DNA of 64,000 nt from an uncultured delta proteobacterium (GCA_963823335.1 CAWGLD010000001.1:544001-608000), one strand, 5' to 3'; positions 13,786-38,595 are shown, numbered from the stretch's first letter. Notes: generated by a model not told the origin, from the sequence alone. Translations and numbers: made by a program.

Positions 13786-14994
13786 ATGAACAACCCGCCT
13801 GCAGTAGCCGTTGTCGGTACATTTGATTCAAAGGGAGAAGAACATCTGTTCCTCAAGAACCGTATTGAAGAATTGGGGCTCCAGGTGTTGACCGTAAATG
13901 TCGGGACCAGAGAACCCATTCCCTTCGAAGTATCCCATGACCTGTATGCGTCCATGAAAAAGGATGCGACACTGGATGACAGTAACCGGGACAAAGCCAT
14001 TCAGGGAATGATCCATGGAGGCATACAGTTAATAAAACAACTGTATCGCGATGGTAAAATCCAGGCCATGATATCCGCCGGCGGTGGCAGTGGAACGCAC
14101 CTCTGTTCCAGTATCATGCGCGAACTCCCTATCGGGGTTCCAAAGGTGATGGTTTCAACCGTTGCCTCTCGAGACATGAAGCACACTGTCGGCACCAAAG
14201 ACATCACCATGATGCACAGCGTGGTGGACCTGCTGGGGGTGAACAGCATTTCCGGAATTATTCTGGACAAGGCCGCAGCAGCCGTTTGCGGCATGACCAT
14301 GAGTCAATGGCGGCCTGCTAAAGACAAAAGACGTATTGCACTCTCATTTTTCGGCTTCATCACAAAATCGGCCGAAGCAGTTAAAAAGGCCCTGGAGGGC
14401 ATGGGCTATGAAGTGATTCCCTTTCATGCCAATGGCACCGGCGGTATGGCCATGGAGGAGCTGGCCGCAGAAGGATATTTTGACGGCATTCTCGATCTGG
14501 CAACCCATGAACTGGCCGATGCGTTGATGGGTGGCTACTGCAGCGGCATCGGGCCCGGGCGTTTCGAGCCGTCTGCGGGGAAAAATATTCCCCGGCTGAT
14601 CACACCGGGAGGTCTTGACTGTGCCGTGCTCGAATTTACTCGCCAGCATGTTCCCGAAGAATACAGGAACCGCAAGGTATTTTATTATGACTTCAGATCC
14701 GCCATTCGCCTCACCCTCGAAGAGAGCCGGGTACTGGCTGAACAGCTGTCTGACAGACTGAACAAGGACGTGAAAAATGTTCATGTCCTGGTTCCCACCC
14801 AAGGATGGTCCGAAGCAGACCAGCAGGACGGACCGCTGTATGACCCTGAAACAAATGCATATCTGGTTAAAATTTTCAAAGAAAAACTGGACAAACGCAT
14901 TCAGCTTCAGGAAATCGACATGCACATCAATGATCCTGGTTTTGCTCAAATTGCGGCCAATGTAATGGATCAGATGGTCAAAGAGCGCAGCTAA
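13786..14994 (+). CDS. Tm-1-like ATP-binding protein (UPF0261), paralog 1
   Basis: GTFDSKGEE, GGGSGT, LPIGVPKVMVST, FHANGTGGMAMEEL, HINDPGFA. Confidence 0.88.
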   Translation: MNNPPAVAVVGTFDSKGEEHLFLKNRIEELGLQVLTVNVGTREPIPFEVSHDLYASMKKDATLDDSNRDKAIQGMIHGGIQLIKQLYRDGKIQAMISAGGGSGTHLCSSIMRELPIGVPKVMVSTVASRDMKHTVGTKDITMMHSVVDLLGVNSISGIILDKAAAAVCGMTMSQWRPAKDKRRIALSFFGFITKSAEAVKKALEGMGYEVIPFHANGTGGMAMEELAAEGYFDGILDLATHELADALMGGYCSGIGPGRFEPSAGKNIPRLITPGGLDCAVLEFTRQHVPEEYRNRKVFYYDFRSAIRLTLEESRVLAEQLSDRLNKDVKNVHVLVPTQGWSEADQQDGPLYDPETNAYLVKIFKEKLDKRIQLQEIDMHINDPGFAQIAANVMDQMVKERS

Positions 14995-15034
14995 ATGTCT
15001 AACTCCGAATATCAAAAGCGGAGATCTTCCAAAA

Positions 15035-15913
15035 ATGATTATCAAACCCGATTGCATCCCCTGTATCTTGAACATGTCTTTGCACTATCTTCGCAAACTG
15101 TCCCTTGGCGAGGAACAGGTCAACAAGATCTGTTCAGATATTCTGACATTGCGACCCCTCAGGGGAGAGATATGGGATATCACCAGCCCGGAAATCATCG
15201 AGCCGATCATGAAGAAAATCATGTCCGCTGTCGGCAGTCACGATCCCTTTGCAGTTGAAAGGGTAAAGCAGAACCAGAAGATGCTGACGCTGTATCCACA
15301 GCTGCAAAAAATGGTAAAGACAGCTGAGCATCCATTTAAAGCAGCAGCACACCTCGCCGGTCTTGGAAATGCCATCGATGTCATGCTGGTGGGGGGTGCC
15401 ACAGATATTCAGAAAATCATCAAAGAACAACTCGCCGATCCTCTGCCGGAAAATGTATTAGAGATACTTGAAAAACGGATCATGAGCAGTCGCCACATTC
15501 TCTACTTTGGCGACAATGCCGGAGAAATCGTTCTGGACAGGCTGTTCATCGAAACGATCAAAGAGCACTATGATACAGACATTACCTTTGTGGTCAGAAG
15601 TATGCCGACCTTGAACGATGCAACCCTGAAAGATGCAGAACAGACAGGTATGGCCAATCTGGTGCGTGTCATGGAGAACGGTATCGATGGTCCTGTCCCC
15701 GGAACCCTGCTGAATCGATGCTCAGGTGAGTTGCAGCGTCTTTTTCAGGAGGCGGATCTGATCATATCCAAAGGCGGTGGGAATTTTGACACCCTGGATG
15801 AGCTGCCGGAGAAGCGCAAAAGCAAGATATCCTATCTGCTGCTGTCAAAATGCCGCCCCTACCAAGAGCATTTTGGTGTGGGATTGCAGCGGGCGATACT
15901 ATTTAACGCTTAG
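15035..15913 (+). CDS. DUF89/ARMT1-like damage-control phosphatase
   Basis: N-terminal CxxC (DCIPC), GNAID, DNAGEIVLD, LNDAT, ISKGGGNF, KC. Confidence 0.88.
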   Translation: MIIKPDCIPCILNMSLHYLRKLSLGEEQVNKICSDILTLRPLRGEIWDITSPEIIEPIMKKIMSAVGSHDPFAVERVKQNQKMLTLYPQLQKMVKTAEHPFKAAAHLAGLGNAIDVMLVGGATDIQKIIKEQLADPLPENVLEILEKRIMSSRHILYFGDNAGEIVLDRLFIETIKEHYDTDITFVVRSMPTLNDATLKDAEQTGMANLVRVMENGIDGPVPGTLLNRCSGELQRLFQEADLIISKGGGNFDTLDELPEKRKSKISYLLLSKCRPYQEHFGVGLQRAILFNA

Positions 15914-15927
15914 AGAACTTTAAAAAA

Positions 15928-16110
15928 GGGTTTGAGGGTGATACAAGGGTGGTACAAGGGTTCGAGGGGGATAAAGGGGTTCGAGGGTCAGAGGGGGATA
16001 CAAGGGTTGGAGGGTGGCTGACAGCAGTTAGCGAAAGGCACCTAATAGTCTACAGTCTAAACCGCTAAAAGGCTAACCAGGGGTGGAGGGTGGTACAGGG
16101 GTTGGAGGGA
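15928..16110 (+). repeat. G-tract post-stop element, copy B (longest)
   Basis: About ten GGG tracts, then the core TGGCTGACAGCAGTTAGCGAAAGGCACCTAATAGTCTACAGTCTAAACCGCTAAAAGGCTAACCAGGG. Confidence 0.8.
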
Positions 16111-16116
16111 AATAAC

Positions 16117-16328
16117 TGTCATTTGCTTCGCGTAAATGAAAATGTTTCAGCTGTTAGGTTTTAAGTGTTAGGTAAGTCACGGGCTAAGAGCAACAATAAA
16201 TTACGCGCGCAGCGCAAATGACAGCCGAAGGCGAAATGTCGCGCGCAGCGCAAATGTCGTCCGCTAGGACAAATGACGCACGAAGTGCAAATGACATCCG
16301 AAGGATAAATGACGCCTGAAAGGCGAAT
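16117..16328 (+). repeat. Mini-hairpin array 1 (7 units of ~18 bp)
   Basis: AAATG(A/T)C linker plus variable 4-bp stem with GCA/GAA loop; inverted unit TGTCATTTGCTTCGC upstream. Confidence 0.8.
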
Positions 16329-16342
16329 GCACAGGGGGGCCC

Positions 16343-17554
16343 ATGCAGAAACCAAGCGTACTTCTTGTGGCAACAATGGATACCAAGTTCAGGGAAGCCG
16401 GCTTCATAGAATCCTGTCTCAAAGAATCCGGCTGTGCGGTCACGGTTATGGATGCCGGGATTCGTGGCGATAGCCCCGTACCTGTCACAATTACAAGACA
16501 CGAAGTCGCCCGGGCCGGCGGAAAAACATTATCGGAAATTCAATCCATAGGCCACGAAGGCGAAGCTCTCAACATGATGCTCATGGGCGCCTGCAGGATT
16601 GCGGACGAAATGATCGCCAAGGGTGCCGTCATTGGTGTCATAAGTCTGGGCGGCTCCATGGGAACCACACTCGGTACGGGTGTCATGCGCCGATTTCCCA
16701 TCGGGGTCCCAAAGGTGATGATCTCCACCATGGCCTCCAGGGATACCCGCACGTTTGTGGGAACAAAAGACATTCTTATGCTGCACGCCGTCTGTGATCT
16801 CTCGGGCCTCAACCGGTTTTCGAGAAAAATACTCCACAACGGCGCCATGGCCCTCTACGGCATGGTGTCCCGGAGCCGGAAAGACATTTCATCAGACAAA
16901 TCCATGATCTTTATTTCCACTCTGGGAACCACCGAGAAATGTGTTCAGGAGATACGCGCCTCCCTCGAAAAACAGGGTAAGGAAGTCGTGGTCTTTCACA
17001 CGGTGGGTTCCGGCGGCAGAGCCATGGAAGAACTCATCGCCTCAGAACCGGTTGAAGCCCTGGTGGACCTCTCCCTGCATGAAATGGCGGATCATCGTTT
17101 CGGAGGGGATTACGATGCAGGACCTGACAGGGGTTCCGTGGCATTGAAAAAGGGGATTCCGGTCGTCCTGGTACCCGGAAATATCGATTTTCTTGTGTCA
17201 GGACCGCTGGAGCAGTCCCTGAAAGATTTTCCCGATCGGCCGTACCATGTTCACAATACAGCCATTACGGTTGTACGAACGACCCGTGAAGAGATTGAAA
17301 GCATTGCCCGGCATGTAGGGGATTATTGTAATGCCGCCCCTGGACCGTACACCCTGGTAATTCCCATGAAGGGATTTTCAGCCTTTGACGCCATAGAGGG
17401 GCCGCTTCACGACCCCCAGGCACCGACCTGCTTTGTCAAAGCCCTGGAATCCCAGCTGTCCGACACATCACGGATGCACACCCTGCCATACCACATCAAT
17501 GATTCCGGCTTTTCTGCAGCTGTGATTGAAAAGCTCCAAGAACTGTTGCCCTGA
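16343..17554 (+). CDS. Tm-1-like ATP-binding protein (UPF0261), paralog 2
   Basis: ATMDTKFRE, GGSMGT, FPIGVPKVMIST, FHTVGSGGRAMEEL, HINDSGFS. Confidence 0.88.
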   Translation: MQKPSVLLVATMDTKFREAGFIESCLKESGCAVTVMDAGIRGDSPVPVTITRHEVARAGGKTLSEIQSIGHEGEALNMMLMGACRIADEMIAKGAVIGVISLGGSMGTTLGTGVMRRFPIGVPKVMISTMASRDTRTFVGTKDILMLHAVCDLSGLNRFSRKILHNGAMALYGMVSRSRKDISSDKSMIFISTLGTTEKCVQEIRASLEKQGKEVVVFHTVGSGGRAMEELIASEPVEALVDLSLHEMADHRFGGDYDAGPDRGSVALKKGIPVVLVPGNIDFLVSGPLEQSLKDFPDRPYHVHNTAITVVRTTREEIESIARHVGDYCNAAPGPYTLVIPMKGFSAFDAIEGPLHDPQAPTCFVKALESQLSDTSRMHTLPYHINDSGFSAAVIEKLQELLP

Positions 17555-17560: not shown

Positions 17561-17935
17561 TCAGAAGCCATCAACAACCATCTTCCTGAAAAAAGCTATT
17601 GTGTCTTTTGCTTCAGTAATTACTGAATAAATAAGAACGCAAAACTGAAGACCAAAAATAACGCTTTCTAAAATAAAGAACTGTCTTGGGCTTGCGGTAA
17701 AAACAAGAAAAGGAACCAGTATCGCCGATAGCCAGAGAAAAATATAACGGAATATAATCTTTTTCTTCCGATTTTTTTCCCTTATCAGAGAAATAATTTT
17801 CAACATAACATAAACAATAATAATATCCGAGATGCTCCACAATATCCCTTGAACTTTTGTGGTCAACAGATAGGCTTCTGTTGAAAAGCTCTTACCTATT
17901 TCCCAAAAAAACATATCTGTTAATTCTGAGATCAT
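17561..17935 (-). CDS. Hypothetical membrane protein (AT-rich)
   Basis: 124 aa, about 3 hydrophobic segments; overlaps the upstream gene's stop. Confidence 0.65.
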   Translation of the reverse strand: MISELTDMFFWEIGKSFSTEAYLLTTKVQGILWSISDIIIVYVMLKIISLIREKNRKKKIIFRYIFLWLSAILVPFLVFTASPRQFFILESVIFGLQFCVLIYSVITEAKDTIAFFRKMVVDGF

Positions 17936-18528
17936 GCTAGCTTCTTTTTTAATAGGAAGAATATTTTAAGCCCAATCAGACCAACAATCCATTCTATGAT
18001 AATCCAGAACATCCCGCATATTTTGATGTAAAAAGTAAAAGAATTTTGTATGTTCCTATGGGTATACCCGTCCATATCGACCAATGAGCCAAGATATGAA
18101 TGGTAGGCAGCATAAAATGAAAAAAGACCTAGGAAGAATATACCCGGCCCAAATAAAAGAATCCTATTAAGTATTGGTTTTTTTCTCTCGATAACAATTC
18201 TTAACAGATTATAGATTTTGAAAACATAAATAACGATAGCCGCCTCGATTGCTACCCAGAGGGTGCAAAAGAAATTCCACAAATAGCTGTAATAGAAATA
18301 TCCTAATGGTTTGTATTTATTGCTTAAATACTTGTCGATATGTATCTCCTGGCCGAAGTTCAAACAGACAAGAAGAACAAAAACAGTGATACAAAAATAG
18401 ATAAATGCTATTTGCCGGGCGTCACCATTTTTAAGAAAAATAAACCCTTTTCTGATATAAATCATAACCAATCCTTCGGCGAACAGCCAAAAGATTCCCA
18501 TGATCTTTATAAAGAATGATAAACTCAT
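17932..18528 (-). CDS. Hypothetical membrane protein (AT-rich) with repeated W-x3-E helices
   Basis: 198 aa, about 5 hydrophobic segments; FWLFAE, LWVAIE, FWIIIE. Confidence 0.65.
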   Translation of the reverse strand: MSLSFFIKIMGIFWLFAEGLVMIYIRKGFIFLKNGDARQIAFIYFCITVFVLLVCLNFGQEIHIDKYLSNKYKPLGYFYYSYLWNFFCTLWVAIEAAIVIYVFKIYNLLRIVIERKKPILNRILLFGPGIFFLGLFSFYAAYHSYLGSLVDMDGYTHRNIQNSFTFYIKICGMFWIIIEWIVGLIGLKIFFLLKKKLA

Positions 18529-18561: not shown

Positions 18562-19242
18562 CTAAACGAGCATATCCGTCAAATCCGCGATGCTGTCAAT
18601 GACGGCATCCGGGTTTTCCCGGCTCAACGCTTTATGGTCGTCAAACCCGGTGAGCACGCCAACCGTCTTCATCCCGGCTGCCTTACCCGCCTGAATATCT
18701 ATACGCGCATCCCCCACATACATGCAGTCCCGGGGCAGGACGCCAAGACTTTTACAGCCCTTTATCAATGGATCCGGCGCCGGCTTTTTACGGGGTGCAT
18801 CCTCTGCATGGATGATGAACTCCAGCAGCTTGTCAATGCCTGAGTCCACCAGTGTCGGCAGTTTGACCGCCATGCTTTGCCGGGGCGTGGATGTAACAAT
18901 GCCCATCCTGATCCCTTTTTGCACCATGGCCTGCAGGGCTTTTTTTGCATCAGGGATCAGTTTTACCTGGTTTCTGAAAAGATTTGGATATATTTCGGCA
19001 ATGATCTCACGGGTTTTCTTTATCAGGTGGTCTTTTTCTTGGGGTGTTTTTTTCGGGAACACACTGCCCCATTCAAAATCACCATTTTTTGCTGCCTCCC
19101 GAAGTCTGTCCCTGGAAGGCATCGGAAAATCGAGTCGATTGAATACTATTTCAATAATCTGGTAGTATATGTGAATGGAGTCCAGAATCGTTCCATCGAG
19201 GTCAAACAAAACAGCAGTCACATTAATTTTCTTATTGTTCAC
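18562..19242 (-). CDS. HAD-family phosphatase (Gph/PpaX-like)
   Basis: FDLDGT, VTS, KKPAPDP, YVGDARID. Confidence 0.9.
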   Translation of the reverse strand: MNNKKINVTAVLFDLDGTILDSIHIYYQIIEIVFNRLDFPMPSRDRLREAAKNGDFEWGSVFPKKTPQEKDHLIKKTREIIAEIYPNLFRNQVKLIPDAKKALQAMVQKGIRMGIVTSTPRQSMAVKLPTLVDSGIDKLLEFIIHAEDAPRKKPAPDPLIKGCKSLGVLPRDCMYVGDARIDIQAGKAAGMKTVGVLTGFDDHKALSRENPDAVIDSIADLTDMLV

Positions 19243-19800
19243 CTAATTATCCTGCGCTTTCTTCTTGTGCATCCAAAAATAGTAAAAGGCCAACAAGGTC
19301 ATGCCATTGTCGATGCGATTGTCATGAATCTCGGAAGAAACATGGGCCAGGGGAAGCTTGATGACATCCAGGTCTTCCCCTTCATCCAAGGCGGGTGCCT
19401 GCTGAAATTCAGCATCCATGGCCAGGCATACAACACATTTGTTGCTCAATATGGCCGGCTGGGGAAAACATTCACCAATCACACGAAAATCCCTGGATCC
19501 ATAGCCGGTCTCCTCCAAAAGCTCTCTCCGGGCGGCTGCAATGGGAGAAGGATCATCCGGGTCCACCAGCCCGCCAGGCAGCTCCAGGTGTACCTTCTCG
19601 GTGCCATGGCGGTACTGGTTGACCATCACGACTTCCTGTTCCGCGGTAAGCGCCAGCACCACAACCCAGGTGGGGAAGTGAATGGCCATCACATTCATGG
19701 TCTTCCCGGTTCTGGGCGAGCGTGCCTCTTTTGATTCTATCTGCATGAGTTTGAAATCATGCAGGATTTTTCGATTCAATATTTTCCACGGTCGGATCAT
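19243..19800 (-). CDS. Nudix hydrolase (ADP-ribose pyrophosphatase/NudF-like)
   Basis: QYRHG, ELPGGLVD...AARRELLEETGY Nudix box; start set at ATG 19800 with RBS AAGGAG. Confidence 0.88.
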   Translation of the reverse strand: MIRPWKILNRKILHDFKLMQIESKEARSPRTGKTMNVMAIHFPTWVVVLALTAEQEVVMVNQYRHGTEKVHLELPGGLVDPDDPSPIAAARRELLEETGYGSRDFRVIGECFPQPAILSNKCVVCLAMDAEFQQAPALDEGEDLDVIKLPLAHVSSEIHDNRIDNGMTLLAFYYFWMHKKKAQDN

Positions 19801-19825
19801 TCTGACAACTCCTTGATTACGCAAT

Positions 19826-19942: not shown

Positions 19943-20890
19943 TCACCTCTGCTGGGCCAGTATCTTCAACATCAAGGCCCCGATATCCTGTGGTCGCATA
20001 TCTTCGGAGCGTAATTTTTTCAAGACTTTTTCAAAAGCCCTGGCAGGCATGGACAAGGGTTGCTTTTTCAGGTAGGCAAAACTGACGTCAAGATAAATCT
20101 GTTGTCCTTTGAGGGGAATCGTGGCCAATTTTCCTTCTTCGATTTCCGCAGCCACACAGGCCTTCACAAGAATGGAAACCCCCTCCCCTTTCTGAACCAG
20201 CTGTTTGATAAATTCGTTGTTACTGGTTTCCATGAGAACATTGGGTGTACAATCATGCTGTTTAAAAAGCATGTTCACGCGCTTTCGGGTTCCTGAACCT
20301 GTTTCCTTCATGATCAGCGGCTCTTTAGCCAGGTCCTGGGGGGAGATGTCTCCTTCGGCTGTCAGCGGGTGATTTACCGGAACAACAAGAATCAGCTCTT
20401 CCTGACTGAAAGGAACAAATGTAACCGCTGGATTCTCTGATGCCTTTGCAATGACAGCCACTTCATTCTTGAATTCCAGGAGGGTGTTGGTCATGTCCAG
20501 TGAGCTGCCCTCATCCAGATGAATTTTGATGCCGGGGTAGTCTTTATGAAAGCTGGAGAGCAGCGACGGCATAAAATAGCGCGCATAGGTCTTGGTGGTT
20601 CCCAGCCTCAGAACACCCCGTTTCAGCTCCTTCATGTCATCGATGACGTTCTCGATTTCTTTTTCATATTGAAAGATTTTCTGGGTGTATTCATACAGTG
20701 TCTTGCCTTCTTCCGTCAGATGTATCTGGCGTCCCTTTTTCTTGAACAGCTTCAGGTTGCATCCTTCTTCCAGTGCCTTGACCTGGGCCGTTACAGCCGG
20801 TTGTGTTACGAAGAGCATGCCTGCCGCAACCGTAAAACTGGCATGCTTCGCTGCATAATGAAAGGTCCTGAGCTGGTTGAAGTTCAACAT
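19943..20890 (-). CDS. LysR-family transcriptional regulator
   Basis: MLNFNQLRTF...SFTVAAGMLFVTQPAVTAQVKALEE HTH; start trimmed to ATG 20890. Confidence 0.92.
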   Translation of the reverse strand: MLNFNQLRTFHYAAKHASFTVAAGMLFVTQPAVTAQVKALEEGCNLKLFKKKGRQIHLTEEGKTLYEYTQKIFQYEKEIENVIDDMKELKRGVLRLGTTKTYARYFMPSLLSSFHKDYPGIKIHLDEGSSLDMTNTLLEFKNEVAVIAKASENPAVTFVPFSQEELILVVPVNHPLTAEGDISPQDLAKEPLIMKETGSGTRKRVNMLFKQHDCTPNVLMETSNNEFIKQLVQKGEGVSILVKACVAAEIEEGKLATIPLKGQQIYLDVSFAYLKKQPLSMPARAFEKVLKKLRSEDMRPQDIGALMLKILAQQR

Positions 20891-20983
20891 GAACGTCTTC
20901 CTTTTTGAAGTATCTCCCAACAAGTCACGGGGCAAGCGCGCGCTGTCGTGTTTCAAAACTTTTATTTATGGAAAATAAATCAC

Positions 20984-21049
20984 ATAAGAAAATGTTATAA
21001 TCAACATAAATTTAATTGAATTGACAGAATATTTTAGTTACTCCATAAA
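20984..21049 (+). promoter_or_regulatory. LysR box and sigma70 promoter of ppsA
   Basis: ATAA-GAAAATG-TTAT (T-N11-A) at 20984-20998; TTGACA 21021-21026, 17 nt, CATAAA. Confidence 0.65.
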
Positions 21050-31259: not shown

Positions 31260-31268
31260 GACATAGCC

Positions 31269-31649
31269 TCATTTTTTTTCCATAAAGTGGGCCTTGACTT
31301 TGAGCGTCAGGGCCGGCTTGTGGCGTTCGCAAACAGGCGCTTCAAGTTTGCCCAGCTTTTCAGCAAGTGTTTCTCCAAAAGCGGCGGTATAAATCGGCTC
31401 GCCACACACACGGCAGTGCTCCAGATCGAGGGAGATGACCTCATCCCAGCGGTTTTGGAGCATATATTGAAATTCGACGGCATCCTGAGGGCACACACGC
31501 CAGCAATTCCCGCAGCGGGCGCATTTTGCCATATTGTGGCGAAGTTTTCTCTTTTTAGCATCATCCTGAACATCGATGGCATTGGCAGGACAATTCTGTA
31601 AACAGGCCAGACACCCGTTACATTTGCTGTTGACCTGGAAAAAGTTCAT
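31269..31649 (-). CDS. 2[4Fe-4S] ferredoxin-domain protein with C-terminal Cys motif
   Basis: CNGCLACLQNCP, CARCGNCWRVCP, CRVC...CERH. Confidence 0.85.
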   Translation of the reverse strand: MNFFQVNSKCNGCLACLQNCPANAIDVQDDAKKRKLRHNMAKCARCGNCWRVCPQDAVEFQYMLQNRWDEVISLDLEHCRVCGEPIYTAAFGETLAEKLGKLEAPVCERHKPALTLKVKAHFMEKK

Positions 31650-31650
31650 C

Positions 31651-32241
31651 TCAGTACTTCCTCCTTAAACAGGCGGATTTGCGGATATTGGCCGTTTGAA
31701 GCATGTCGGCATCGTCCCATCGCAATGCACCGGGTTCGCAAAAATGAACACACTGCGGGTTTCCATTACACACATCGCACTTGAAAATCACCTGTCGGAT
31801 TTCGTCGAAACCGATGGCCGCATAGGGACAGGCAGCCATACACGCTCGACAGGATACACATCGGTCATAATCCACCATGACCCTTCCCCAATCGTCATTC
31901 CAGACCATGGCCTCTTTGGGGCAGACAGCCATGCAAGGCGCATCCGCACACTGCTGACAACAATTCGGTAAAAAGACATCACCCGTGTGCCATGCAATTA
32001 CACGAATTCGAGATCGGGAAGTATCGATGTCGCCCAGATGGAAAAGAGAACAGGCAATTTCGCAGAGCCTGCACCCATTGCACTTTTGTGGATGAATTGT
32101 AATGACTTTCTGTGAGACGTGCGCTTCTTCCGGCCGTGGGGCCAGCACGTTAAAGTCACCGTTTTTCAGTCGCTCCACGATATCTTCCGGGAGGCTGCTT
32201 TTTGTCTCCTGGCCAGCTTTGCAGAAACGCGTGTCGATCAT
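31651..32241 (-). CDS. 4Fe-4S dicluster (DmsB/CooF-like) electron transfer protein
   Basis: CNGCRLCEIAC, CQQCADAPCMAVCP, CVSCRACMAACP, KCDVC...CVHFC. Confidence 0.85.
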   Translation of the reverse strand: MIDTRFCKAGQETKSSLPEDIVERLKNGDFNVLAPRPEEAHVSQKVITIHPQKCNGCRLCEIACSLFHLGDIDTSRSRIRVIAWHTGDVFLPNCCQQCADAPCMAVCPKEAMVWNDDWGRVMVDYDRCVSCRACMAACPYAAIGFDEIRQVIFKCDVCNGNPQCVHFCEPGALRWDDADMLQTANIRKSACLRRKY

Positions 32242-32287: not shown

Positions 32288-32573
32288 GCAATATGACAGT
32301 ACTTTATCGACTAAAATGAATCCTTGTCAACTATAAAATGATAGATTACAGCTCTTGTCATACGTATGTTCCGTTTGGCCTATTTGCAAAACAAGCGTTT
32401 GTTTGAAGTTGTTTGCCGAAGCAGCTTCGGAACGTTGTTCTGACAAACTGTCTACAGGGATTATGTGTATTTTGCCCTTGACACCGGGGCCTGTTTTCAA
32501 CTATAACCACACCATAATAATTCATCCTAATGAACAAACCCTTTTTGTGAAACAAACAGATGAGGAGCATGCC

Positions 32574-32879
32574 ATGGCCATCGACTCAAAAAATCTATCA
32601 TCAGCCGAATCGTTACAGAAAGCCCGCACCTTCGGCAAAATCAGATGCCACAACCCCAGCTGCATGGAAAGGATGGAGCCGTCTCCCGGCGACGATCACG
32701 TCAAATGCGCAACCTGTGGCATGGAGTTTCGGCTCTTCTGGGTGCGCCCGGACCTGCCGCGAATCCGCGGACCGGTCTGGGATGTCAATCGTAAAATTGC
32801 GGAGCAGAAGTTGGCCGAGAAATTAAAAAAAGCCAGCCCGGTCTCAAAGAAAAAAATCAAAAAAGAGGGGGTATCCTAA
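32574..32879 (+). CDS. Small Cys-motif (Zn-ribbon-like) hypothetical protein
   Basis: RBS GAGGAG; CHNPSC...CATC; stop 1 nt before the AOR start. Confidence 0.7.
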   Translation: MAIDSKNLSSAESLQKARTFGKIRCHNPSCMERMEPSPGDDHVKCATCGMEFRLFWVRPDLPRIRGPVWDVNRKIAEQKLAEKLKKASPVSKKKIKKEGVS

Positions 32880-32880: not shown

Positions 32881-34821
32881 ATGGCATTAGATCGAAAAAT
32901 TGCATACATCGATCTTTCCGAAGGCAAGATTGAATCCAAGCCGATCCCGATTGAAATTCGAAAAAAATACCTGGGTGGCCGGGGGCTCGATGCATACCTG
33001 CTGTACAACCATGCGCCCAAAGGGTGTGATCCTCTGGGTCCTGAAAACCCATTATTGATCAGCGGCGGCATTCTTACGGCAACATGCGCCTCAGCCACGG
33101 CCCGGACACACATCATGGCCAAATCACCCCTGACCGGTCTTTTGGGAAGTGCCAACATGGGCGGATTCTTTGCCCCTGAACTGGCATGGGCCGGCTATCA
33201 TCACCTGGTCATCACAGGTAAGGCAAAAAAGCCTGTATATATCTGGATTCACAACGGCACCATCGAAATTCGTGACGCCGCGCATCTGTGGGGCAAAACG
33301 ACCACGGAAACCCAATGGGCCATCCGTGAGGAACTGAATGACGATGAAATCAAGAGCGCCGTTATTGGTCAGGCCGGTGAAAACCTGGTGCGCTATGCCA
33401 ATGTAATGACCGGCGTCAAAAATGCCGCCGGCCGGACAGGCATGGGCTGCGTCATGGGATCGAAAAACCTGAAGGCCGTGGCCGTACGCGGAACCATGGA
33501 CATCAAAATCGCCCACCCCATCGAAGCCCTGGACCACAATAAACGCTTCATCGATCAGATCACCAGCGCCAAGGTAAACAAAACCCAGGGCACATTGGGC
33601 ACGCCTTTTATATGGGGGGCTACCAACAGCTGGGGTGGTGTGCGCAACCGCAATTTTCAATACAACCAGCTTGAAAACGCCGACGACATCGAGCCCGAAA
33701 GAATCGACGAGATCGCCACGGAAACCATGGGGCCCTACCACATGGCGGGATGTTTTGGCTGCCAGGTCCATTGCCGGGCCCAGTACAAGATTCCATCGGG
33801 ACCCTATGCCGGAAAGTACGATGAGGGTCCGGAATACACATCCCAGGGAGCCTTCGGGGCTGAACCGGACTGCACAAAAGCGGAAACGGTTCTGACAGGC
33901 AATCACCTGGTCGATCAGTACGGTGTGGACAACCTGGAGATCGGCAGCCTCATCTCCTGGGCCATGGAGCTTTTTGAACTTGGCATCATCACCACCAAAG
34001 AAACCGATGGGCTGGACCTTCGATTCGGCAATGACGAGGCCCTGCTGGAAATGATTCACCGCATCTGCCAGCGCAAGGGCTGGCTGGGAGACGCCCTGGC
34101 CGACGGCGGCATACCGGCATCCCAGAAGATCGGTAAAAAATCCTTTGATTATCTGATCCAGGTCAAAGGGATGAGCAATCTGCACTCCGACGAACGCGGT
34201 ACACCTGCCCTGGCCCTCAATATTGCCACGGCTTCCCGCGGCTCCGATCATCTGCGCAGCCGACCGGCCATCGATCTCTATCATCTTCCCGAAAAAGTGC
34301 TTCGCAAGATATATGGCAGCCCGATTCCCTATGAAGGCCCCCTGAGTTCGGAGCACACCGAATACATCGGTAAACCCTGGCAGGTTTTCTGGCAGCAGAA
34401 CTGTTATATGGCCGTCGACTGCCTGGGAATCTGTAAATACCACACGGTGTTTTTAGGCGCGACCCTGCCCAACTTCGAAGACTGGCCCAAGGTGATCTAC
34501 TACAACACGGGTCTTGAATTTACACCCCGGGAGTTATGGGAAATTGCCGAACGCTGTAACAATATCGAGAGGTTGTACAACCTGAGAGAAGGACTTGAAC
34601 GGGATGATCCTGTCAAAGGCGACACGCTCAATCACCGCTATTTCGATGAGCCCTTACGAAGAGGGGCTCCTGACATTGTCGGACTGACAATCGATCGAAA
34701 AAAGTTCAAAAAAATGGTGGATGAATTTTATACCCATAACGGTTGGGACAAAAAAGGTGTCCCAACACCCGAAACCTTGCGTCGGCTTGGTCTGGACCAG
34801 GAACCAGCCCACCTACTATAG
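32881..34821 (+). CDS. Aldehyde:ferredoxin oxidoreductase family (tungstopterin) enzyme
   Basis: LGGRG, KSPLTG, GRTGMGCVMGSKNLKA, CFGCQVHC, EGPEY, DCLGIC, GWDKKGVPT. Confidence 0.92.
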   Translation: MALDRKIAYIDLSEGKIESKPIPIEIRKKYLGGRGLDAYLLYNHAPKGCDPLGPENPLLISGGILTATCASATARTHIMAKSPLTGLLGSANMGGFFAPELAWAGYHHLVITGKAKKPVYIWIHNGTIEIRDAAHLWGKTTTETQWAIREELNDDEIKSAVIGQAGENLVRYANVMTGVKNAAGRTGMGCVMGSKNLKAVAVRGTMDIKIAHPIEALDHNKRFIDQITSAKVNKTQGTLGTPFIWGATNSWGGVRNRNFQYNQLENADDIEPERIDEIATETMGPYHMAGCFGCQVHCRAQYKIPSGPYAGKYDEGPEYTSQGAFGAEPDCTKAETVLTGNHLVDQYGVDNLEIGSLISWAMELFELGIITTKETDGLDLRFGNDEALLEMIHRICQRKGWLGDALADGGIPASQKIGKKSFDYLIQVKGMSNLHSDERGTPALALNIATASRGSDHLRSRPAIDLYHLPEKVLRKIYGSPIPYEGPLSSEHTEYIGKPWQVFWQQNCYMAVDCLGICKYHTVFLGATLPNFEDWPKVIYYNTGLEFTPRELWEIAERCNNIERLYNLREGLERDDPVKGDTLNHRYFDEPLRRGAPDIVGLTIDRKKFKKMVDEFYTHNGWDKKGVPTPETLRRLGLDQEPAHLL

Positions 34822-34846
34822 ATTATGGAATGGAGAGGAAAAGACA

Positions 34847-35344
34847 ATGGAGAAAGTTCTATCTGTCGATTTTCAGAAGTGTACCGGTTGCCGTTTGTGC
34901 GAAATCATATGTTCGGTGATGCATGACGGTGTTTCCAATCCCGCCAGAAGCAGAATCAGGATCGTGAAATGGGAAGATGAAGGCCAATATATTCCCATGA
35001 TCTGCCAGCAATGTGAGGATGCGCCCTGTCTGAATGTCTGCCCGGTGGGGGCCATATCCAGAGATGCGGATTACGGCTTTTTATCTGTCGACTACAATAC
35101 CTGTATCGGTTGCCGTTCATGTGTGAGCGTCTGCCCTTTCGGGGCCATGAACTATACCAGAATCGACAAAAAGATATTCAAATGCGACCTGTGCGGAGGG
35201 GATCCGCAGTGCGTGCGATTCTGCGAGATGAAGGCTGTGGATTATATTCCATCTGATCGTATGGGTGCCGAAAAGAAAAGAGATGCGGCCACGCGTTTTT
35301 ATGCCGCTCAAAAAAAGGCCACAGCACTCCAGGAGCCCTTTTAA
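34847..35344 (+). CDS. 4Fe-4S dicluster subunit (AOR partner)
   Basis: CTGCRLCEIIC, CQQCEDAPCLNVCP, CIGCRSCVSVCP, KCDLCGGDPQC; start ATG 34847. Confidence 0.88.
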   Translation: MEKVLSVDFQKCTGCRLCEIICSVMHDGVSNPARSRIRIVKWEDEGQYIPMICQQCEDAPCLNVCPVGAISRDADYGFLSVDYNTCIGCRSCVSVCPFGAMNYTRIDKKIFKCDLCGGDPQCVRFCEMKAVDYIPSDRMGAEKKRDAATRFYAAQKKATALQEPF

Positions 35345-35359: not shown

Positions 35360-36802
35360 ATGGGCATCAACACAATCAAATTACGTTCCGTAGGTATCGA
35401 TGTCGGCAGCTCGACGTCGCATCTGGTATTCTCGAATCTGGTGTTGGTGAGGGATGAGATGTCCCCCTCCCGTCGCTTTAAAATCGAGCGCAGAGAGGTG
35501 ATTTATGAAGGCCGGATCATCGACACACCCCTGCACGACAACGATACGATTGACATCGATCGATTGATTGCATTTGTGAGGGATGAGTGCCGGCGGGCCG
35601 GTATCGATCCCGAAGAGATCGATACCGGTGCGGTGATCATCACGGGAGAAACGGCAAAAAAGCGCAATGCGCGCGAGATCGTGGAATCGTTGTCCAAAGA
35701 TACGGGAAAATTTGTCGCAGCAACCGCCGGACCCAACTTCGAAAGCCTGCTGGCCGCCATGGGATCCGGTGCAACGACCCGTTCAAAGGACATGCAGAAA
35801 ACCATCCTGTCCTGCGACATCGGCGGTGGAACCGCCAACATGGCCATCTCCGTCAATGGGGAGGTTGTCTCCACAAGCTGTATTTCTGTGGGTGGAAGAT
35901 TGCTGGCCATAAATTCCGACGGTACTATCCGCAAACTGGACAGACCTGCAAGAAAGATCATGCAGCATATCGGGCTGACCTACGACGTGGGGGATCGGAT
36001 CCCCAAAGCGGATATGGGCAAAATCGCGTCATGCATGGCCGACGTGCTGATGGAGGTGCTCACCGGTCCTGCTGTCACGCTACTGGCCAAACAGTTGATG
36101 ACGTCGCCCTCCCTGGATTTCCAGCATGAAATCGATGAATACTCTTTTTCAGGGGGTGTGGCCGAATTGATCTATGGGCCACCGTCCGATTACGGCGACG
36201 TGGGTGGCATGCTTGCAGAAAAACTGATGGCCCTGTTCCCCGATCTGAAGGCACCGGTGGTCGAACCGGTGAACAAGATCCGGGCCACCGTCATCGGTGC
36301 GGGAGCCTATTCATTGTCTATCTCGGGCTGCTCCGGATTTATGGATGAAAAACTGACCTTCCCCTTAAAAAACATTCCTGTGCTCAGGGTCGATGTAGAG
36401 CGCTCAAAACTGTCCGTCGAGCATGTCGTCTCCCAGGTAAATCTGGCCTATAAACGATTCGACTTACACGAAGGTGAAGAGACCGTGGCCCTGTACTTCA
36501 AAGATCCGGTTCAGGCATCCTATCCACGTCTGGAGCTGTTTGCAAAATCGATCGAAGCCGCCCTGGTCAATTCCATTCAAAAAAAGATACCGATCATTCT
36601 CATTTTTGAAAAAGACGTCGCCTGCAGTGTCGGAAATGTCATTCAGCGGGAAACCGGTTTGAAAACAAACCTGCTCTCTTTGGACGAGTTGCTTTTAGAA
36701 GATGGAGAATGGATCGATATCGGCGCGCCTTTGGTTCATCGCCAGGTGTTTCCCGTAACCGTGAAATCCCTTGTGTTCCATTCCGACCCTTCAACGTGCT
36801 GA
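35360..36802 (+). CDS. EutA-family reactivating-factor ATPase (ASKHA)
   Basis: SVGIDVGSSTSHLVFS, GAVIITGETAKKRNA, FVAATAGPNFES, DIGGGT, IRATVIGAG, PVTVKSL. Confidence 0.85.
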   Translation: MGINTIKLRSVGIDVGSSTSHLVFSNLVLVRDEMSPSRRFKIERREVIYEGRIIDTPLHDNDTIDIDRLIAFVRDECRRAGIDPEEIDTGAVIITGETAKKRNAREIVESLSKDTGKFVAATAGPNFESLLAAMGSGATTRSKDMQKTILSCDIGGGTANMAISVNGEVVSTSCISVGGRLLAINSDGTIRKLDRPARKIMQHIGLTYDVGDRIPKADMGKIASCMADVLMEVLTGPAVTLLAKQLMTSPSLDFQHEIDEYSFSGGVAELIYGPPSDYGDVGGMLAEKLMALFPDLKAPVVEPVNKIRATVIGAGAYSLSISGCSGFMDEKLTFPLKNIPVLRVDVERSKLSVEHVVSQVNLAYKRFDLHEGEETVALYFKDPVQASYPRLELFAKSIEAALVNSIQKKIPIILIFEKDVACSVGNVIQRETGLKTNLLSLDELLLEDGEWIDIGAPLVHRQVFPVTVKSLVFHSDPSTC

Positions 36803-36817
36803 CAGGATTTTTCCCTG

Positions 36818-37090
36818 TTACCCCCCTGCCAGCATAAGGGTGATCTGGATTTCATCACCATCCCCTACAGGTTTCCTGAGTTCGTCAGGGTAGGTGCTTT
36901 CCAGATTGAGGTAGATTTCGATCAGCTTGTGCAAGGTTCCGTCAGCATTATACAGAACCTTTTTCATATCGGGAAAACGGCCGACCAGATCGTTGAGACA
37001 CTCTCCGATGGTCCGGCCGGCGACCTCGATGGTTTTCTGGTTATCGGTGTACCGACGATGGCTTGAATGTATGTTGACTTTGACGCTCAT
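36818..37090 (-). CDS. MoaD/ThiS sulfur carrier
   Basis: Ubiquitin-like fold ending MLAGG; start ATG 37090. Confidence 0.85.
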   Translation of the reverse strand: MSVKVNIHSSHRRYTDNQKTIEVAGRTIGECLNDLVGRFPDMKKVLYNADGTLHKLIEIYLNLESTYPDELRKPVGDGDEIQITLMLAGG

Positions 37091-37208
37091 GTTGCAATCC
37101 TGAATCGCTGAAATTGATTTGAAACCGTTATAACTGAACCCTGTAACATGCAATATAATAAACAATTCAGATTTTTTCCATCTCTATTGTCAAAAAAGGA
37201 TCGTTTTA

Positions 37209-37997
37209 ATGTCCACCCTCGAACCGGTCACAAAACAACCGGGTTATCAAGCTCCGGCCGTTCATAAGGCTTTCCAGCTGCTTCGCACCGTCGCTGCCTC
37301 CCATAAACCTTTGGGACTCACCGAACTGGCCCAGCAGCTCGGGTACAGCAAAAGCACCACCCACGGACTGGTCCATGCGCTTTTACGGGAAGGCGCCTTG
37401 GTCCAGGAAGCCAATGGACGCGGTCTTTTCTTGGGCCCGGTGGTTTCCGACCTGACCTTTGACAGCTGGAACTACCTCAAAGTGAATGAGTTGAGCCAGC
37501 CGATTATCAATGCCATTCGCGATGCAGCCGGTGAAACGGTATTTTTCGGTGTTTTGATCAACAAACGAGTGATCATCCTGACCATCGCGGAGGCTGCCGT
37601 ACCACTGAAGATTTCCGGATCGACCGGCACCAGCATTTCACTTTTTGCCGGCGCTGTCGGTAAAGTCTTTCTGGCCGATGCAAACATTAGCGACGTAAAA
37701 CTGTTGCTGCGGAAAAATAAACTTCCACGCTACACACCGCTTTCCATCTGGAAAGAGAAAGACTACCTGCAGGAACTGGAACACGTGCGCAAGCTTGGTT
37801 ATGCCGTTGACAACGAAGAATATCTGACCGGAGTGAAGGCGGTGGCCGTGGCTCTCCACAACCAGAAGGGCCCTCCCATGGCGGTCTGGGTCGTTGGATT
37901 GTCCAGTTCCATGACCAGGGCAAAAATGGACTGGATAATCGACAGTCTTGTTGTAAAAGCTGACATGCTCCGTCAAACATTGGCCGAAAACATGTGA
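37209..37997 (+). CDS. IclR-family regulator
   Basis: AVHKAFQLL...LGYSKSTTHGL HTH; AVGKVFLA, GYAVDNEEY. Confidence 0.9.
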   Translation: MSTLEPVTKQPGYQAPAVHKAFQLLRTVAASHKPLGLTELAQQLGYSKSTTHGLVHALLREGALVQEANGRGLFLGPVVSDLTFDSWNYLKVNELSQPIINAIRDAAGETVFFGVLINKRVIILTIAEAAVPLKISGSTGTSISLFAGAVGKVFLADANISDVKLLLRKNKLPRYTPLSIWKEKDYLQELEHVRKLGYAVDNEEYLTGVKAVAVALHNQKGPPMAVWVVGLSSSMTRAKMDWIIDSLVVKADMLRQTLAENM

Positions 37998-37998
37998 C

Positions 37999-38595
37999 AT
38001 GGAATGGAAGCGATTCATACAGGAACTTTATCTGCGGGCCGAGCCTTATCTGATAACGAGGAATGATTCCGTTCACACCCGGGTTGCCCATGGCTATGCA
38101 CTGCTTCTGCTCCAAAAGGAGGGCGGTGACCGCAACATCGTCGAACCGGCCATCATCCTTCACGATGTCGGGTGGTCGGCACTCAAACCGGAGGACATCG
38201 AGACTGCCTATGGGATTCGGGCCACGGGTGCAAAAGCGCGCGAGCTGAATCGTGTCCACGAAATCCAGGGCGCCGGAATTGCCGCAGAGATCCTCGCCGA
38301 CCTGGGTTGTGACACCATAAGCATCGACAGTATCGTAAAGATCATCGACCGCCACGATTCCGGAACGAGCCCCGATACATTGGAAGAGAAGCTGGTGAAA
38401 GATGCGGACAAACTTTGGCGTTTTTCAATAATCGGGTACTCTTACGAGTTGCAAAGGCAGGCCAGCACCCACACGGCAAGACACGCTTTTCTGTCCCAAA
38501 AGGTCGACAGCTGGTTTTTTACCCCAACCGCAAAAGCGCTGGCAGACAAAGAACTTCGGGCGCGCGACAAAGAAAACTACAAGGGTTCGATCTGA
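37999..38595 (+). CDS. HD-domain phosphohydrolase
   Basis: H...ILHDVGW...HE...HD...DADKL. Confidence 0.85.
   Translation: MEWKRFIQELYLRAEPYLITRNDSVHTRVAHGYALLLLQKEGGDRNIVEPAIILHDVGWSALKPEDIETAYGIRATGAKARELNRVHEIQGAGIAAEILADLGCDTISIDSIVKIIDRHDSGTSPDTLEEKLVKDADKLWRFSIIGYSYELQRQASTHTARHAFLSQKVDSWFFTPTAKALADKELRARDKENYKGSI

Follow-up and report, generated by a model that had tools for sequence, protein, structure and literature searches.

A conserved dikinase-UbiD core, most likely for anaerobic phenol carboxylation, within a composite gene cluster of an uncultured delta proteobacterium

We analysed a 64,000-nucleotide (nt) stretch of DNA from an uncultured delta proteobacterium (GCA_963823335.1 CAWGLD010000001.1:544001-608000), hereafter called the window, which carries a 25-kb gene cluster resembling the phosphorylation and carboxylation systems of anaerobic phenol degraders. 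Genes were identified via an open reading frame (ORF) listing combined with Pfam and NCBIfam profile scans. The Pfam scan covered 60 ORFs, the largest non-overlapping ones across the whole window, while ten ORFs of 61-84 amino acids (aa) and several of 70-179 aa (e.g. 16161-16376, 36818-37165 and 39693-40232) lay outside it. The window was also searched in all six frames by tblastn, using PpsC, PpcA, PpcD, PpcG, DUF120 and NUDIX queries from the Azoarcus sp. KH32C cluster as well as 4-hydroxybenzoyl-CoA reductase (Hcr)-like subunits, CBS proteins and PAC_bac from related loci. An earlier note had described a non-canonical cluster whose limits, 13786 and 38595, coincide with the ends of the first and last gene in the ORF listing. 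All genes it named were recovered, namely ppsA-ppsB, one PpcB-like ubiD, a ligase gene, ubiX and the accessory families, the latter comprising three UPF0261/Tm-1-like proteins, several phosphohydrolases, an aldehyde:ferredoxin oxidoreductase (AOR) and EutA-like and MetV-like proteins. Overlooked at the time was a gene for a 171-aa single-domain receiver at 25933-26448, detected by Pfam between ubiD and the ligase gene. The interval is a composite of a conserved core (19943-30514) and add-ons that differ even between close relatives. The core contains the following genes:

19943-20956, minus strand: LysR regulator (Pfam HTH_1 and LysR_substrate), divergent from ppsA across a 252-nt spacer
21208-23064, plus strand: PpsA-like dikinase subunit, 618 aa, with a C-terminal phospho-histidine mobile domain (NF006153, 847.5 bits, cutoff 578)
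23157-24233, plus strand: PpsB-like ATP-binding subunit, 358 aa (PF01326 PPDK_N, 402 bits)
24492-25898, plus strand: PpcB-type UbiD carboxylase dependent on prenylated flavin mononucleotide (prFMN), 468 aa (TIGR02724, 507.7 bits, cutoff 468.95)
25933-26448, plus strand: single-domain receiver, 171 aa, with a Trp-rich C-terminal tail (PF00072, 51.2 bits)
26706-28361, plus strand: AMP-forming aryl-acid CoA ligase of the DhbE/FadD type (Pfam AMP-binding and AMP-binding_C)
28524-29735, plus strand: UPF0261 paralogue 3, 403 aa (Pfam N and C domains)
29810-30514, plus strand: UbiX flavin prenyltransferase, ORF of 234 aa with the domain starting at residue 36 (PF02441; NF004685, 262.3 bits, cutoff 188)

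The dikinase genes encode counterparts of the alpha and beta subunits of the Thauera-type phenylphosphate synthase. PpsA consists of a PpsA-specific body of about 600 aa followed by the C-terminal phosphoenolpyruvate (PEP)-utilizer histidine domain of the alpha subunit (PF00391, residues 539-609), whose 'TSHAA' histidine motif aligns with PEP synthase structures, and the adjacent gene encodes the PPDK_N domain of the beta subunit. As canonical anchor we used the annotated cluster on plasmid pAZKH of Azoarcus sp. KH32C (L081), obtained from a protein search of annotated plasmids. PpsA and PpsB of the window were 41.6% and 49.9% identical to their Azoarcus counterparts, respectively, and UbiX was 56.2% identical. 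UbiD, the only member of its family in the window, passed the NCBIfam model for 'phenylphosphate carboxylase subunit beta' and failed the alpha model TIGR02723 (227 bits, cutoff 564.6); it was 49.5% identical to Azoarcus PpcB and 33.7% to PpcA.

The Azoarcus cluster starts with a sigma-54 regulator followed by ppsA, ppsB, a CBS-domain ppsC, ppcB, ppcD of the HAD type, ppcA and ppcG, and continues with a third UbiD gene, ubiX, DUF120, NUDIX, a PaaK-type ligase and a transporter. The window shares with this Thauera/Azoarcus type the ppsA-ppsB-...-ppcB order, UbiX, a NUDIX protein and a CoA ligase, which in Azoarcus stands at the cluster end, but lacks CBS PpsC, PpcA, HAD-type PpcD, PpcG (PF09662), the third UbiD and the DUF120 kinase. 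Its regulator is of the LysR rather than the sigma-54 type, its ligase belongs to the DhbE/FadD rather than the PaaK type (25% identity between the two), and no UPF0261 or receiver gene is found within 15 kb on either side of the Azoarcus cluster. Gene content and the low PpsA identity bear out the proposed departure from the Thauera/Azoarcus PpsABC-PpcABCD layout. The proposed absences hold as well: Pfam scanning and tblastn of the 64-kb window found no PpsC, second UbiD or xanthine-oxidase-family gene, and PpcA, PpcD and PpcG were likewise missing by one or both of these methods. At E<1, tblastn of the window returned only the single UbiD, matched by the PpcA query, and short spurious matches.

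To place the core in a wider context, we scanned GTDB species genomes with the window UbiD. The best 80 of 259 relatives (UbiD 77-98% identical) were fetched and their synteny was scored by tblastn with window proteins; add-on counts were taken from the 22 loci with at least 9 kb of sequence on both sides. Nearly all loci are titled as Desulfobacterota-type metagenome-assembled genomes (MAGs), other contig titles being Gammaproteobacteria (L019) and Pseudomonadota (L066 and L073), and named carriers include Desulfomonilaceae, Candidatus Desulfacyla euxinica and Syntrophobacter sp. SbD1. Since the order LysR / ppsA-ppsB-ubiD-(receiver)-ligase-UPF0261-ubiX recurs across the 80 loci, the arrangement is no chance juxtaposition. 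A UPF0261 gene stood at most 5 kb downstream of ubiD in all 44 loci with enough sequence, the ligase gene followed ubiD in 45 of 53, and ubiX was present in 29 of 32 observable loci. A LysR orthologue of more than 50% identity was encoded upstream in 14/15 loci with a window-type PpsA, as defined below, and at least 9 kb on both sides. The add-ons were far patchier (22 full loci: AOR 5, MetV 2, ARMT1 4, HAD 7, HD 9, NUDIX 10), so that the idea of syntenic accessory genes stands for the third UPF0261 gene, which is strictly syntenic, and fails for most of the other extras. One locus (L016) has the entire window layout in common, whereas three others with UbiDs 97-98% identical to that of the window (L001, L002 and L004) carry MoeB and an Hcr-like enzyme between UPF0261 and IclR instead.

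Neither of the small Azoarcus carboxylase subunits has a counterpart in these loci: tblastn found no match to the HAD-type 18-kDa PpcD (delta) in the window or, at E<=1e-3, in the 80 loci, and none to the 10-kDa gamma subunit PpcG in the window or the 80 loci. We considered a hidden PpcG-like small gene in the 259-nt ppsB-ubiD spacer and rejected it, as this spacer holds no ORF longer than 45 aa and is unconserved among six loci. A short run of CTAAAAC-like repeats lies within it at 24340-24390.

Two types of dikinase accompany the conserved UbiD. The 46 window-type PpsAs were 40.5-43.7% identical to Azoarcus PpsA. In 13 further loci (Desulfomonilaceae, Syntrophobacteraceae and Syntrophales), the PpsA beside the same UbiD was just 40-43% identical to that of the window, and the ten full-length sequences from these loci, here called canonical-type, were 61-65% identical to Azoarcus PpsA. 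In a PpsA tree of 68 rows the window type formed a clade of its own (SH-aLRT, the Shimodaira-Hasegawa-like approximate likelihood ratio test, 97-99), sister (100) to a haloarchaeal clade and apart from both the canonical phenol clade (100) and the Rhodococcus cre-type kinase. For PpsA, the phylogenetic check that the earlier note had called for came out in favour of a variant, with no grouping with canonical phenol PpsA. An exhaustive search of representatives at 50% identity retrieved the cluster of the window PpsA itself (78%) and no other full-length representative above 44%; among the matches listed, homology searches with PpsA returned close metagenome relatives only. Haloarchaeal plasmids harbour the closest outgroup of the window-type PpsAB pair (44-45% identity). 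On that of Natribaculum luteum (L083, 8950-11979 plus neighbours), adjacent genes encode a HAD-IB phosphatase and a metallophosphoesterase, an aldehyde dehydrogenase, a Rieske dioxygenase and a large FAD/Fe-S protein, a set that may represent an archaeal phosphorylation-initiated pathway for phenolic compounds.

UbiD itself is unusually conserved, at 77-98% identity in the 80 loci kept, which span several orders, and with a mean column identity of 89% in 26 sequences. Because a UbiD 84-92% identical to that of the window stands behind canonical-type PpsAB in the 13 loci, both dikinase settings probably present the carboxylase with one and the same substrate, namely phenylphosphate. The neighbours of UbiD diverge unevenly. 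In Desulfomonilaceae loci PpsA is 42%, UPF0261 53-57% and UbiX 56-63% identical to the window proteins; L001, L002 and L004 combine UbiDs of 97-98% with PpsAs of 81-82%, yet L016 has UbiD at 91% and PpsA at 90%. Such a pattern suggests recombination or transfer of a ubiD-ligase unit. The Syntrophobacter sp. SbD1 locus (L059:2008-12892) contains two tandem PpcB-type UbiD genes (84% and 82% identical to that of the window) and two PpsAB pairs, with both PpsA copies of the canonical type.

A published counterpart of the core exists in the sulfate reducer Desulfatiglans anilini. As reported in the excerpts of PMC6114531 used here, its phenol-induced phe cluster (H567DRAFT_02049-02059) contains ppsα and ppsβ, one copy of ppcβ, ubiX, genes for CO-dehydrogenase-like (Hcr-type) subunits and two ligase genes, with identities of 42% to Thauera for ppsα, 49% for ppcβ and 56% for ubiX, while ppcγ is absent and candidates for ppsγ, ppcα and ppcδ lie elsewhere. 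The same excerpts state that extracts of phenol-grown cells form phenylphosphate and that the function of the induced '2,3-dihydroxybenzoate (DHB)-AMP ligase' 02058 is unknown. Peak areas in the supplementary data of a second study, likewise used in excerpt (PMC7500099, Table_1.XLSX sheet 1), are given for 4-aminobenzoate / aniline / benzoate / phenol: 0 / 5.0e7 / 5.3e7 / 2.5e9 for 02057 ('UPF0261 family', 403 aa), 8.5e8 / 8.0e8 / 6.6e8 / 1.26e10 for the ligase 02058 (552 aa), 1.06e9 / 8.8e8 / 6.9e8 / 6.0e9 for the CheY-like receiver 02050 (175 aa) and 1.5e9 / 8.8e8 / 8.8e8 / 1.8e10 for PpcB (02059, 468 aa). By annotation and length, the counterparts of the core UPF0261 protein, ligase and receiver are thus phenol-induced.

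Both the window and the phe cluster combine ppsα-ppsβ without an adjacent ppsγ, a single 468-aa ppcβ adjoined by a DhbE-like ligase of about 550 aa, a 403-aa UPF0261 protein, ubiX and a small CheY-like receiver of about 175 aa. Identities to the denitrifier enzymes are also alike (PpsA 41.6, PpcB 49.5 and UbiX 56.2% for the window; 42, 49 and 56% for D. anilini, by the excerpted report), and the relatives of the window ligase bear the same name in IMG as 02058, '2,3-dihydroxybenzoate-AMP ligase'. Differences concern the periphery and one gene position. The window cluster has neither Hcr-like subunits nor a PaaK-type ligase, its receiver gene follows ubiD whereas that of D. anilini adjoins ppsβ, and it adds two further UPF0261 proteins, ARMT1, HAD and NUDIX proteins, an AOR/MetV/EutA module and an IclR-HD pair. 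Judged by gene order, annotation, lengths and identity levels, the window core would be of the phe type.

We therefore regard the core as a Desulfatiglans-type operon under LysR control whose most likely function is the conversion of phenol to 4-hydroxybenzoyl-CoA, a reading to which we assign a probability of roughly 0.6. The proposed variant pathway holds up insofar as the core is non-canonical compared with Thauera, but it is no new kind of pathway since it matches the published D. anilini cluster. As deduced from family membership, PpsB would load the mobile histidine of the divergent PpsA from ATP, and PpsA would then phosphorylate phenol. The single PpcB-type UbiD, with prFMN made by UbiX, would carboxylate phenylphosphate at the para position, and the DhbE/FadD-type ligase would form the CoA thioester, a step for which some related clusters appear to use a PaaK-type ligase. 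Removal of the hydroxyl group would follow; this step is not encoded in the window, and in six related loci an Hcr-like molybdenum enzyme that could catalyse it is encoded beside the core.

The ligase and the neighbouring reductase genes bear on the nature of the products. The ligase ORF opens at 26607, but the likely start is at 26706, yielding 551 aa, because orthologues of 550-553 aa begin at the 'LKPIRY' position. Its nearest solved structures are DhbE and salicyl-AMP ligases (221-208 bits), compared with 114 bits for benzoate-CoA ligase. The positions aligned to DhbE N235, Y236 and S240, which we take to be those that bind the ortho-hydroxyl group, are G, A and T/L and are not conserved. 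A function as an ortho-hydroxybenzoate (salicylate or 2,3-dihydroxybenzoate) enzyme was consequently dropped and, with it, the hydroquinone/gentisate or ortho-carboxylation route that it would imply. Ligases from loci with canonical-type PpsA are about 80-85% identical to that of the window; one locus without a DhbE-type ligase (L044) encodes a PaaK-type ligase 40% identical to that of the Azoarcus cluster. Hcr-like gene trios adjoin the core in L001, L002, L004, L009, L069 and L079; counted over loci with 9 kb or more of downstream sequence, these are 6 of the 24 window-type and 0 of the 8 canonical-type ones. The L002 large subunit scored 903.4 bits against TIGR03194 (cutoff 994.55; next-best model 610.7). 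Because such trios adjoin the core and L044 has a PaaK-type ligase, the products are likely 4-hydroxybenzoate and its CoA ester. Tblastn with the related-locus proteins found no Hcr-like subunits in the window. Homology searches with the ligase returned close metagenome relatives, Desulfomonile tiedjei being the sole cultured name among the matches listed; the DhbE-type ligase of this organohalide respirer (P0460) is 82% identical. This cultured species probably has the core as well and would be a possible host for experiments.

The receiver occupies the place after ubiD that HAD-type ppcD holds after ppcB in Azoarcus; a remote homology between the two was considered, but no likeness was detected (hhalign probability 4.8%). 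D16, D17, D58, T82 and K105, corresponding to the acidic pair, the phospho-acceptor aspartate, the threonine and the lysine, are invariant in 28 sequences, and the Trp-rich tail is conserved in the same set. Profile scans recognised no output domain, the protein clusters found are named 'response regulator' from Thermodesulfobacteriota, and homology searches gave close metagenome relatives only, among the matches listed. The distribution of the receiver was compared with that of CBS-domain PpsC in the 39 loci with at least 5.5 kb downstream (10 canonical-type, 29 window-type). All ten canonical-type loci had a CBS gene, located directly after UPF0261 and 33-39% identical to Azoarcus PpsC, and none had the receiver. 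No window-type locus had a CBS gene, a result that Pfam and six-frame tblastn also gave for the window, and 23 of 29 had the receiver. Given its complete phospho-acceptor site and this complementary distribution, the receiver is most likely a substitute for CBS PpsC that works with the divergent dikinase.

The core UPF0261 protein is a constant companion of this carboxylase. A first catalytic activity for the UPF0261 family was described in 2025 for MarK, which according to the excerpted report phosphorylates phenolic aldehydes and ketones while converting ATP to ADP, carries D-T-K as its N-terminal ATP motif and binds the phenol through G195, H219 and H304, residues that are >90% conserved (PMC12624787). 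Paralogue 3 matched the MarK structure 9mpy with 187.9 bits and retains D-T-K and G195, while T196 is replaced by Pro, H219 by Ser and H304 by Leu. A MarK-like reaction on a phenol is therefore doubtful, because two of the phenol-binding residues are not kept. An 82-sequence tree placed paralogue 3 in a clade of 45 rows (support 99), 43 of which lie just downstream of ubiD; the 'GFSAAG' motif is conserved in the clade, with His present in 4 of the 45 rows, and this return of His weakens any argument built on that residue. Clusters without the ligase still have a UPF0261 gene, from another subclade, between ubiD and ubiX. The family thus seems to be associated not with the ligase but with the carboxylase or its cofactor. 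As candidate roles we rank first a possible phosphoryl-handling partner of the carboxylase that replaces PpcA, PpcC or PpcD, second a possible part in FMN or dimethylallyl phosphate supply to UbiX, and third a possible kinase activity on a later phenolic intermediate. The abundance of the D. anilini protein, about 1/7 of that of PpcB, leads us to favour a pathway role over cofactor supply. No role of UPF0261 in anaerobic phenol metabolism was discussed in the literature searched (full text), and a corresponding search combining '2,3-dihydroxybenzoate-AMP ligase' with anaerobic phenol carboxylation found the D. anilini paper as the only relevant one.

In 29 loci, the closest layout relative L016 among them, UPF0261 and ubiX are separated by a gene for a PAC_bac protein (PF21758) of about 130 aa (e.g. 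L016:15213 and L021:15400-15789). Among loci with at least 5.5 kb downstream, 20 of the 29 with a window-type PpsA had this gene, as did 2 of the 10 with a canonical-type one. Tblastn detected no trace of it at 29735-29915 of the window, where the gap measures just about 75 nt.

Phenol arises from tyrosine breakdown, lignin and pollution and is a common substrate in anoxic habitats. The core is widespread in sediment and peat MAGs, as also reflected by the number of UbiD relatives recovered from GTDB genomes. While the window holds no new pathway, the comparison of 80 loci defines the conserved core of the Desulfobacterota version, in which UPF0261 always accompanies this UbiD and the receiver alternates with PpsC, and it singles out three conserved core proteins, UPF0261, the DhbE-type ligase and the receiver. 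A further-reaching model, which we put forward tentatively and hold to be possible rather than probable, is that of a phenol machine of strictly anaerobic Desulfobacterota, unlike the Thauera one in its make-up, in which a divergent two-subunit dikinase with the phosphorylatable receiver in place of CBS PpsC would feed a homomeric PpcB-type carboxylase with an obligatory MarK-family UPF0261 phosphotransferase, UPF0261 and the DhbE-type ligase together replacing PpcA, PpcC and PpcD. The D. anilini authors raise the question of how an expense of up to four ATP equivalents is bearable for a sulfate reducer, leaving open, in the excerpted text, how energy-limited anaerobes pay for activation and carboxylate without γ and δ subunits (PMC6114531). 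If the model were true, the component missing from this picture, one that handles phosphoryl groups or saves energy, would be UPF0261. Were its link to an anaerobic UbiD carboxylase strict, the UPF0261 family would also gain a second context that differs from that of MarK.

Several observations weigh against phenol as the substrate of a phe-type core. The window contains no hydroxyl-removing enzyme, no second UbiD and no benzoyl-CoA pathway gene, and UbiD clears the PpcB cutoff narrowly, its 507.7 bits comparing with 1105.4 for Azoarcus PpcB. The equivalence with D. anilini was drawn from order, annotation, lengths and identity levels, and the Ppsβ identity reported there is 38% compared with 49.9% for window PpsB. 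The core UPF0261 protein is without H219 and H304 of MarK. As 6 of the 29 window-type loci do without the receiver, it must be dispensable or replaceable, and the Fisher p values for the receiver/CBS pattern (1e-5 and 2e-9) overstate the evidence as few independent lineages are involved. Finally, the nearest outgroup of PpsA is the haloarchaeal clade, which like the Rhodococcus homologue is found in an aerobic, cresol-like gene context, so that phylogeny leaves the substrate range unsettled. This last point leads to the alternative that the core activates another substrate (cresol, catechol, hydroquinone, 4-hydroxybenzaldehyde or aniline), with the divergent PpsAB setting the specificity. PpsA is only 41.6% identical to the canonical enzyme, and the genes of its haloarchaeal sister clade neighbour those for phosphatases, an aldehyde dehydrogenase and an FAD/Fe-S oxidase; the window further adds a MarK-like kinase, AOR and an HD protein resembling CreD. 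As stated in the excerpts of PMC9618137, the kinases that act on phenol, on alkylphenols and on hydroxyphenylethanones belong to clades of their own. Against this, the UbiD behind canonical-type PpsAB and CBS PpsC in the 13 loci is 84-92% identical to that of the window, Hcr-like genes occur in six loci, and the phenol-induced Ppsα of D. anilini is likewise 42% identical to Thauera in an organism whose extracts form phenylphosphate (PMC6114531, in excerpt). For aniline, the D. anilini ani cluster (phenylphosphoamidate synthase PasAB, Ppcβ and acyl-CoA synthetase) is of similar make-up, sharing with the window a dikinase pair, a single PpcB-type UbiD, an acyl-CoA synthetase of about 550 aa and UPF0261. 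However, its Pasα is 26.7% identical to D. anilini Ppsα and annotated as PEP synthase/pyruvate phosphate dikinase type whereas window PpsA is of the Pps type, so an aniline-type kinase would be expected much further from canonical PpsA than that of the window. The window lengths of 468 and 403 aa also fit phe and not ani, where UPF0261 (03869) has 411 aa and, in the excerpted data of PMC7500099, was induced by aniline and 4-aminobenzoate, with no detection during growth on phenol or benzoate. Overall, we consider a different substrate, as the earlier note had suggested, unlikely.

Two further alternatives concern single enzymes. In one, the AOR module (tungsten enzyme, ferredoxins and EutA-like ATPase) would replace 4-hydroxybenzoyl-CoA reductase, perhaps after phosphorylation by a UPF0261 kinase. 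The module sits in the ubiX-iclR slot of a window that has no Hcr gene, the UPF0261-iclR slot of L001, L002 and L004 is taken by MoeB and Hcr-like genes, and the AOR family includes the aryl-CoA reductase BamB. The enzyme, however, resembles true AORs over its full length (322.2 bits to Pyrococcus furiosus 1aor, residues 9-638; 281.3 bits to the Aromatoleum AOR 8c0z), whereas the match to BamB (4z3w, 233 bits) is limited to residues 8-425, the N-terminal two thirds, and a BamB-type function is not favoured. The module is present in only 5 of 22 full loci with varying positions and orientations, and an Hcr gene may lie elsewhere in the genome, which makes the replacement improbable. In the other, UbiD would act as a decarboxylase, or the cluster would be biosynthetic or detoxifying rather than serve phenol catabolism. 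UbiD enzymes are reversible and their family includes hydroxyarylic acid decarboxylases (VdcC model 316.7 bits, cutoff 650), and a conservation of 77-98% is unusual for a catabolic enzyme. This UbiD is, however, coupled to an ATP-consuming dikinase, a CoA ligase and LysR in one operon, its D. anilini counterparts are by annotation phenol-induced (PMC7500099, in excerpt), and Hcr-like genes adjoin the core in six loci; we regard this alternative as very improbable. Carboxylation of phenylphosphate in a phe-type operon thus remains our preferred reading of the core.

The core is flanked by the following variable add-ons:

13786-14994, plus strand: UPF0261 paralogue 1, 402 aa, Tm-1-like subfamily (Pfam N and C domains)
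15035-15913, plus strand: ARMT1/DUF89-type metal-dependent phosphatase, 292 aa (PF01937, 168.7 bits)
16343-17554, plus strand: UPF0261 paralogue 2, 403 aa, MarK-like candidate aromatic (phenolic-OH) kinase (Pfam N and C domains)
17561-18528, minus strand: two hydrophobic ORFs, 124 and 198 aa, without Pfam or NCBIfam match
18562-19242, minus strand: HAD-IA hydrolase, 226 aa, phosphoglycolate-phosphatase-like (Pfam HAD_2, 128 bits; NCBIfam equivalogs all below cutoff)
19243-19824, minus strand: NUDIX hydrolase, 193 aa, NudE-like (Pfam NUDIX)
30558-32241, minus strand: MetV-like DUF5981 protein (233 aa), 2x[4Fe-4S] ferredoxin (126 aa) and Fer4_11 polyferredoxin (196 aa), all by Pfam
32571-32879, plus strand: small Cys-x2-Cys zinc-ribbon-like protein before AOR (ORF opens at 32355)
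32881-35344, plus strand: tungsten-type AOR, 646 aa (AFOR_N and AFOR_C), and Fer4_11 subunit
35360-36802, plus strand: EutA-like ASKHA ATPase, 480 aa (PF06277, 457.7 bits), closing the AOR operon
37209-38595, plus strand: IclR regulator (262 aa) and CreD-like HD-domain phosphohydrolase (198 aa), by Pfam

Paralogue 1 is nearest to the Tm-1 structure (191.7 bits, compared with 160.2 bits for MarK 9mpy); it has an N-terminal D-S-K, keeps the His equivalent to MarK H219 ('FHANG'), has a Tyr near position 304 and is found upstream of the core in some loci only. Paralogue 2 matched MarK over its full length (336.5 bits) and retains the equivalents of D-T-K, G195-T196, H219 and H304, with H348 replaced by Phe. 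Its clade, marked by 'FHTVG', comprises 10 rows, each of them from upstream of the core. In a cre-like cluster of Rhodococcus, the HD protein encoded at the creD position shares 35% identity (E 3e-19) with that of the window; the cre gene names were taken from a table in the excerpted PMC7764795. With its MarK-type ATP and phenol-oxygen residues in paralogue 2 and this HD protein, the window recalls the 'phosphate as handle' systems MarK, CreHI-CreD and HpeHI-AcvAB; unlike the window, the CreHI/CreD and HpeHI/AcvAB pathways are aerobic, use P450 or biotin carboxylases and have no UbiD. By the excerpts of PMC9618137, CreHI and HpeHI are homologues of PpsAB. It is a speculative possibility that MarK-like kinase, tungsten AOR and CreD-like aryl-phosphate hydrolase extend the cluster to phenolic aldehydes. 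The ORM2 benzene 'Magic' cluster was rejected as a relative, its content according to the excerpted PMC13101534 being GlcDEF-like flavoproteins, a CoA transferase and a hotdog hydratase.

In case of the phosphohydrolases, the canonical ubiX-DUF120-NUDIX set suggests that some may serve prFMN supply, NUDIX proteins being linked to dimethylallyl phosphate. The Azoarcus cluster also has a NUDIX gene after ubiX, with no detectable likeness to that of the window (E 0.13). ARMT1 scored 124.7 bits against the NCBIfam damage-control phosphatase model, below the cutoff of 440. Between UPF0261 paralogue 2 and the HAD gene, the two hydrophobic ORFs lie in AT-rich DNA (local GC 0.46-0.49), the 198-aa translation is membrane-like, and tblastn found no counterpart in the 80 loci at E<=1e-10; they are probably a window-specific insertion unrelated to the pathway.

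The MetV-like, ferredoxin and polyferredoxin genes co-occur with AOR genes in L016, L043, L053, L064, L065 and L080 and, by their sequence families, appear to form a variable electron-transfer module. The Fer4_11 subunit ORF of AOR spans 34721-35344, its true start probably lying later. Of the zinc-ribbon-like ORF only the C-terminal ~100 aa are conserved (tblastn coverage 0.5-0.7 in AOR-bearing loci), with a weak IBR match (E 0.005). The EutA-like gene follows the AOR genes in L016, L043 and L053, and NCBIfam EutA equivalogs were all below cutoff (392 vs 598).

Scanning of the whole window gave no match to Rfam families, riboswitches included. Promoter-like sites were as frequent as expected by chance (17 found, 17.2 expected), and terminator-like sites exceeded chance somewhat but were uninformative (35 found, 23.3 expected, standard deviation 4.5). 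In a Desulfomonilaceae locus (L007:18353-21294), a pterin-binding/B12-binding/URO-D-like trio lies a few kb downstream of the phenol core and encodes a corrinoid methyltransferase system, which is possibly an O-demethylase. Outside the cluster, a fumarase-type ORF of 337 aa (58776-59789) covers only positions 131-312 of the Lyase_1 profile and may be N-terminally truncated or have a mis-set start. At 46001-48000, GC falls to 0.40 around an MttB-family methyltransferase gene (46296-47738), compared with about 0.50-0.57 in the flanks.

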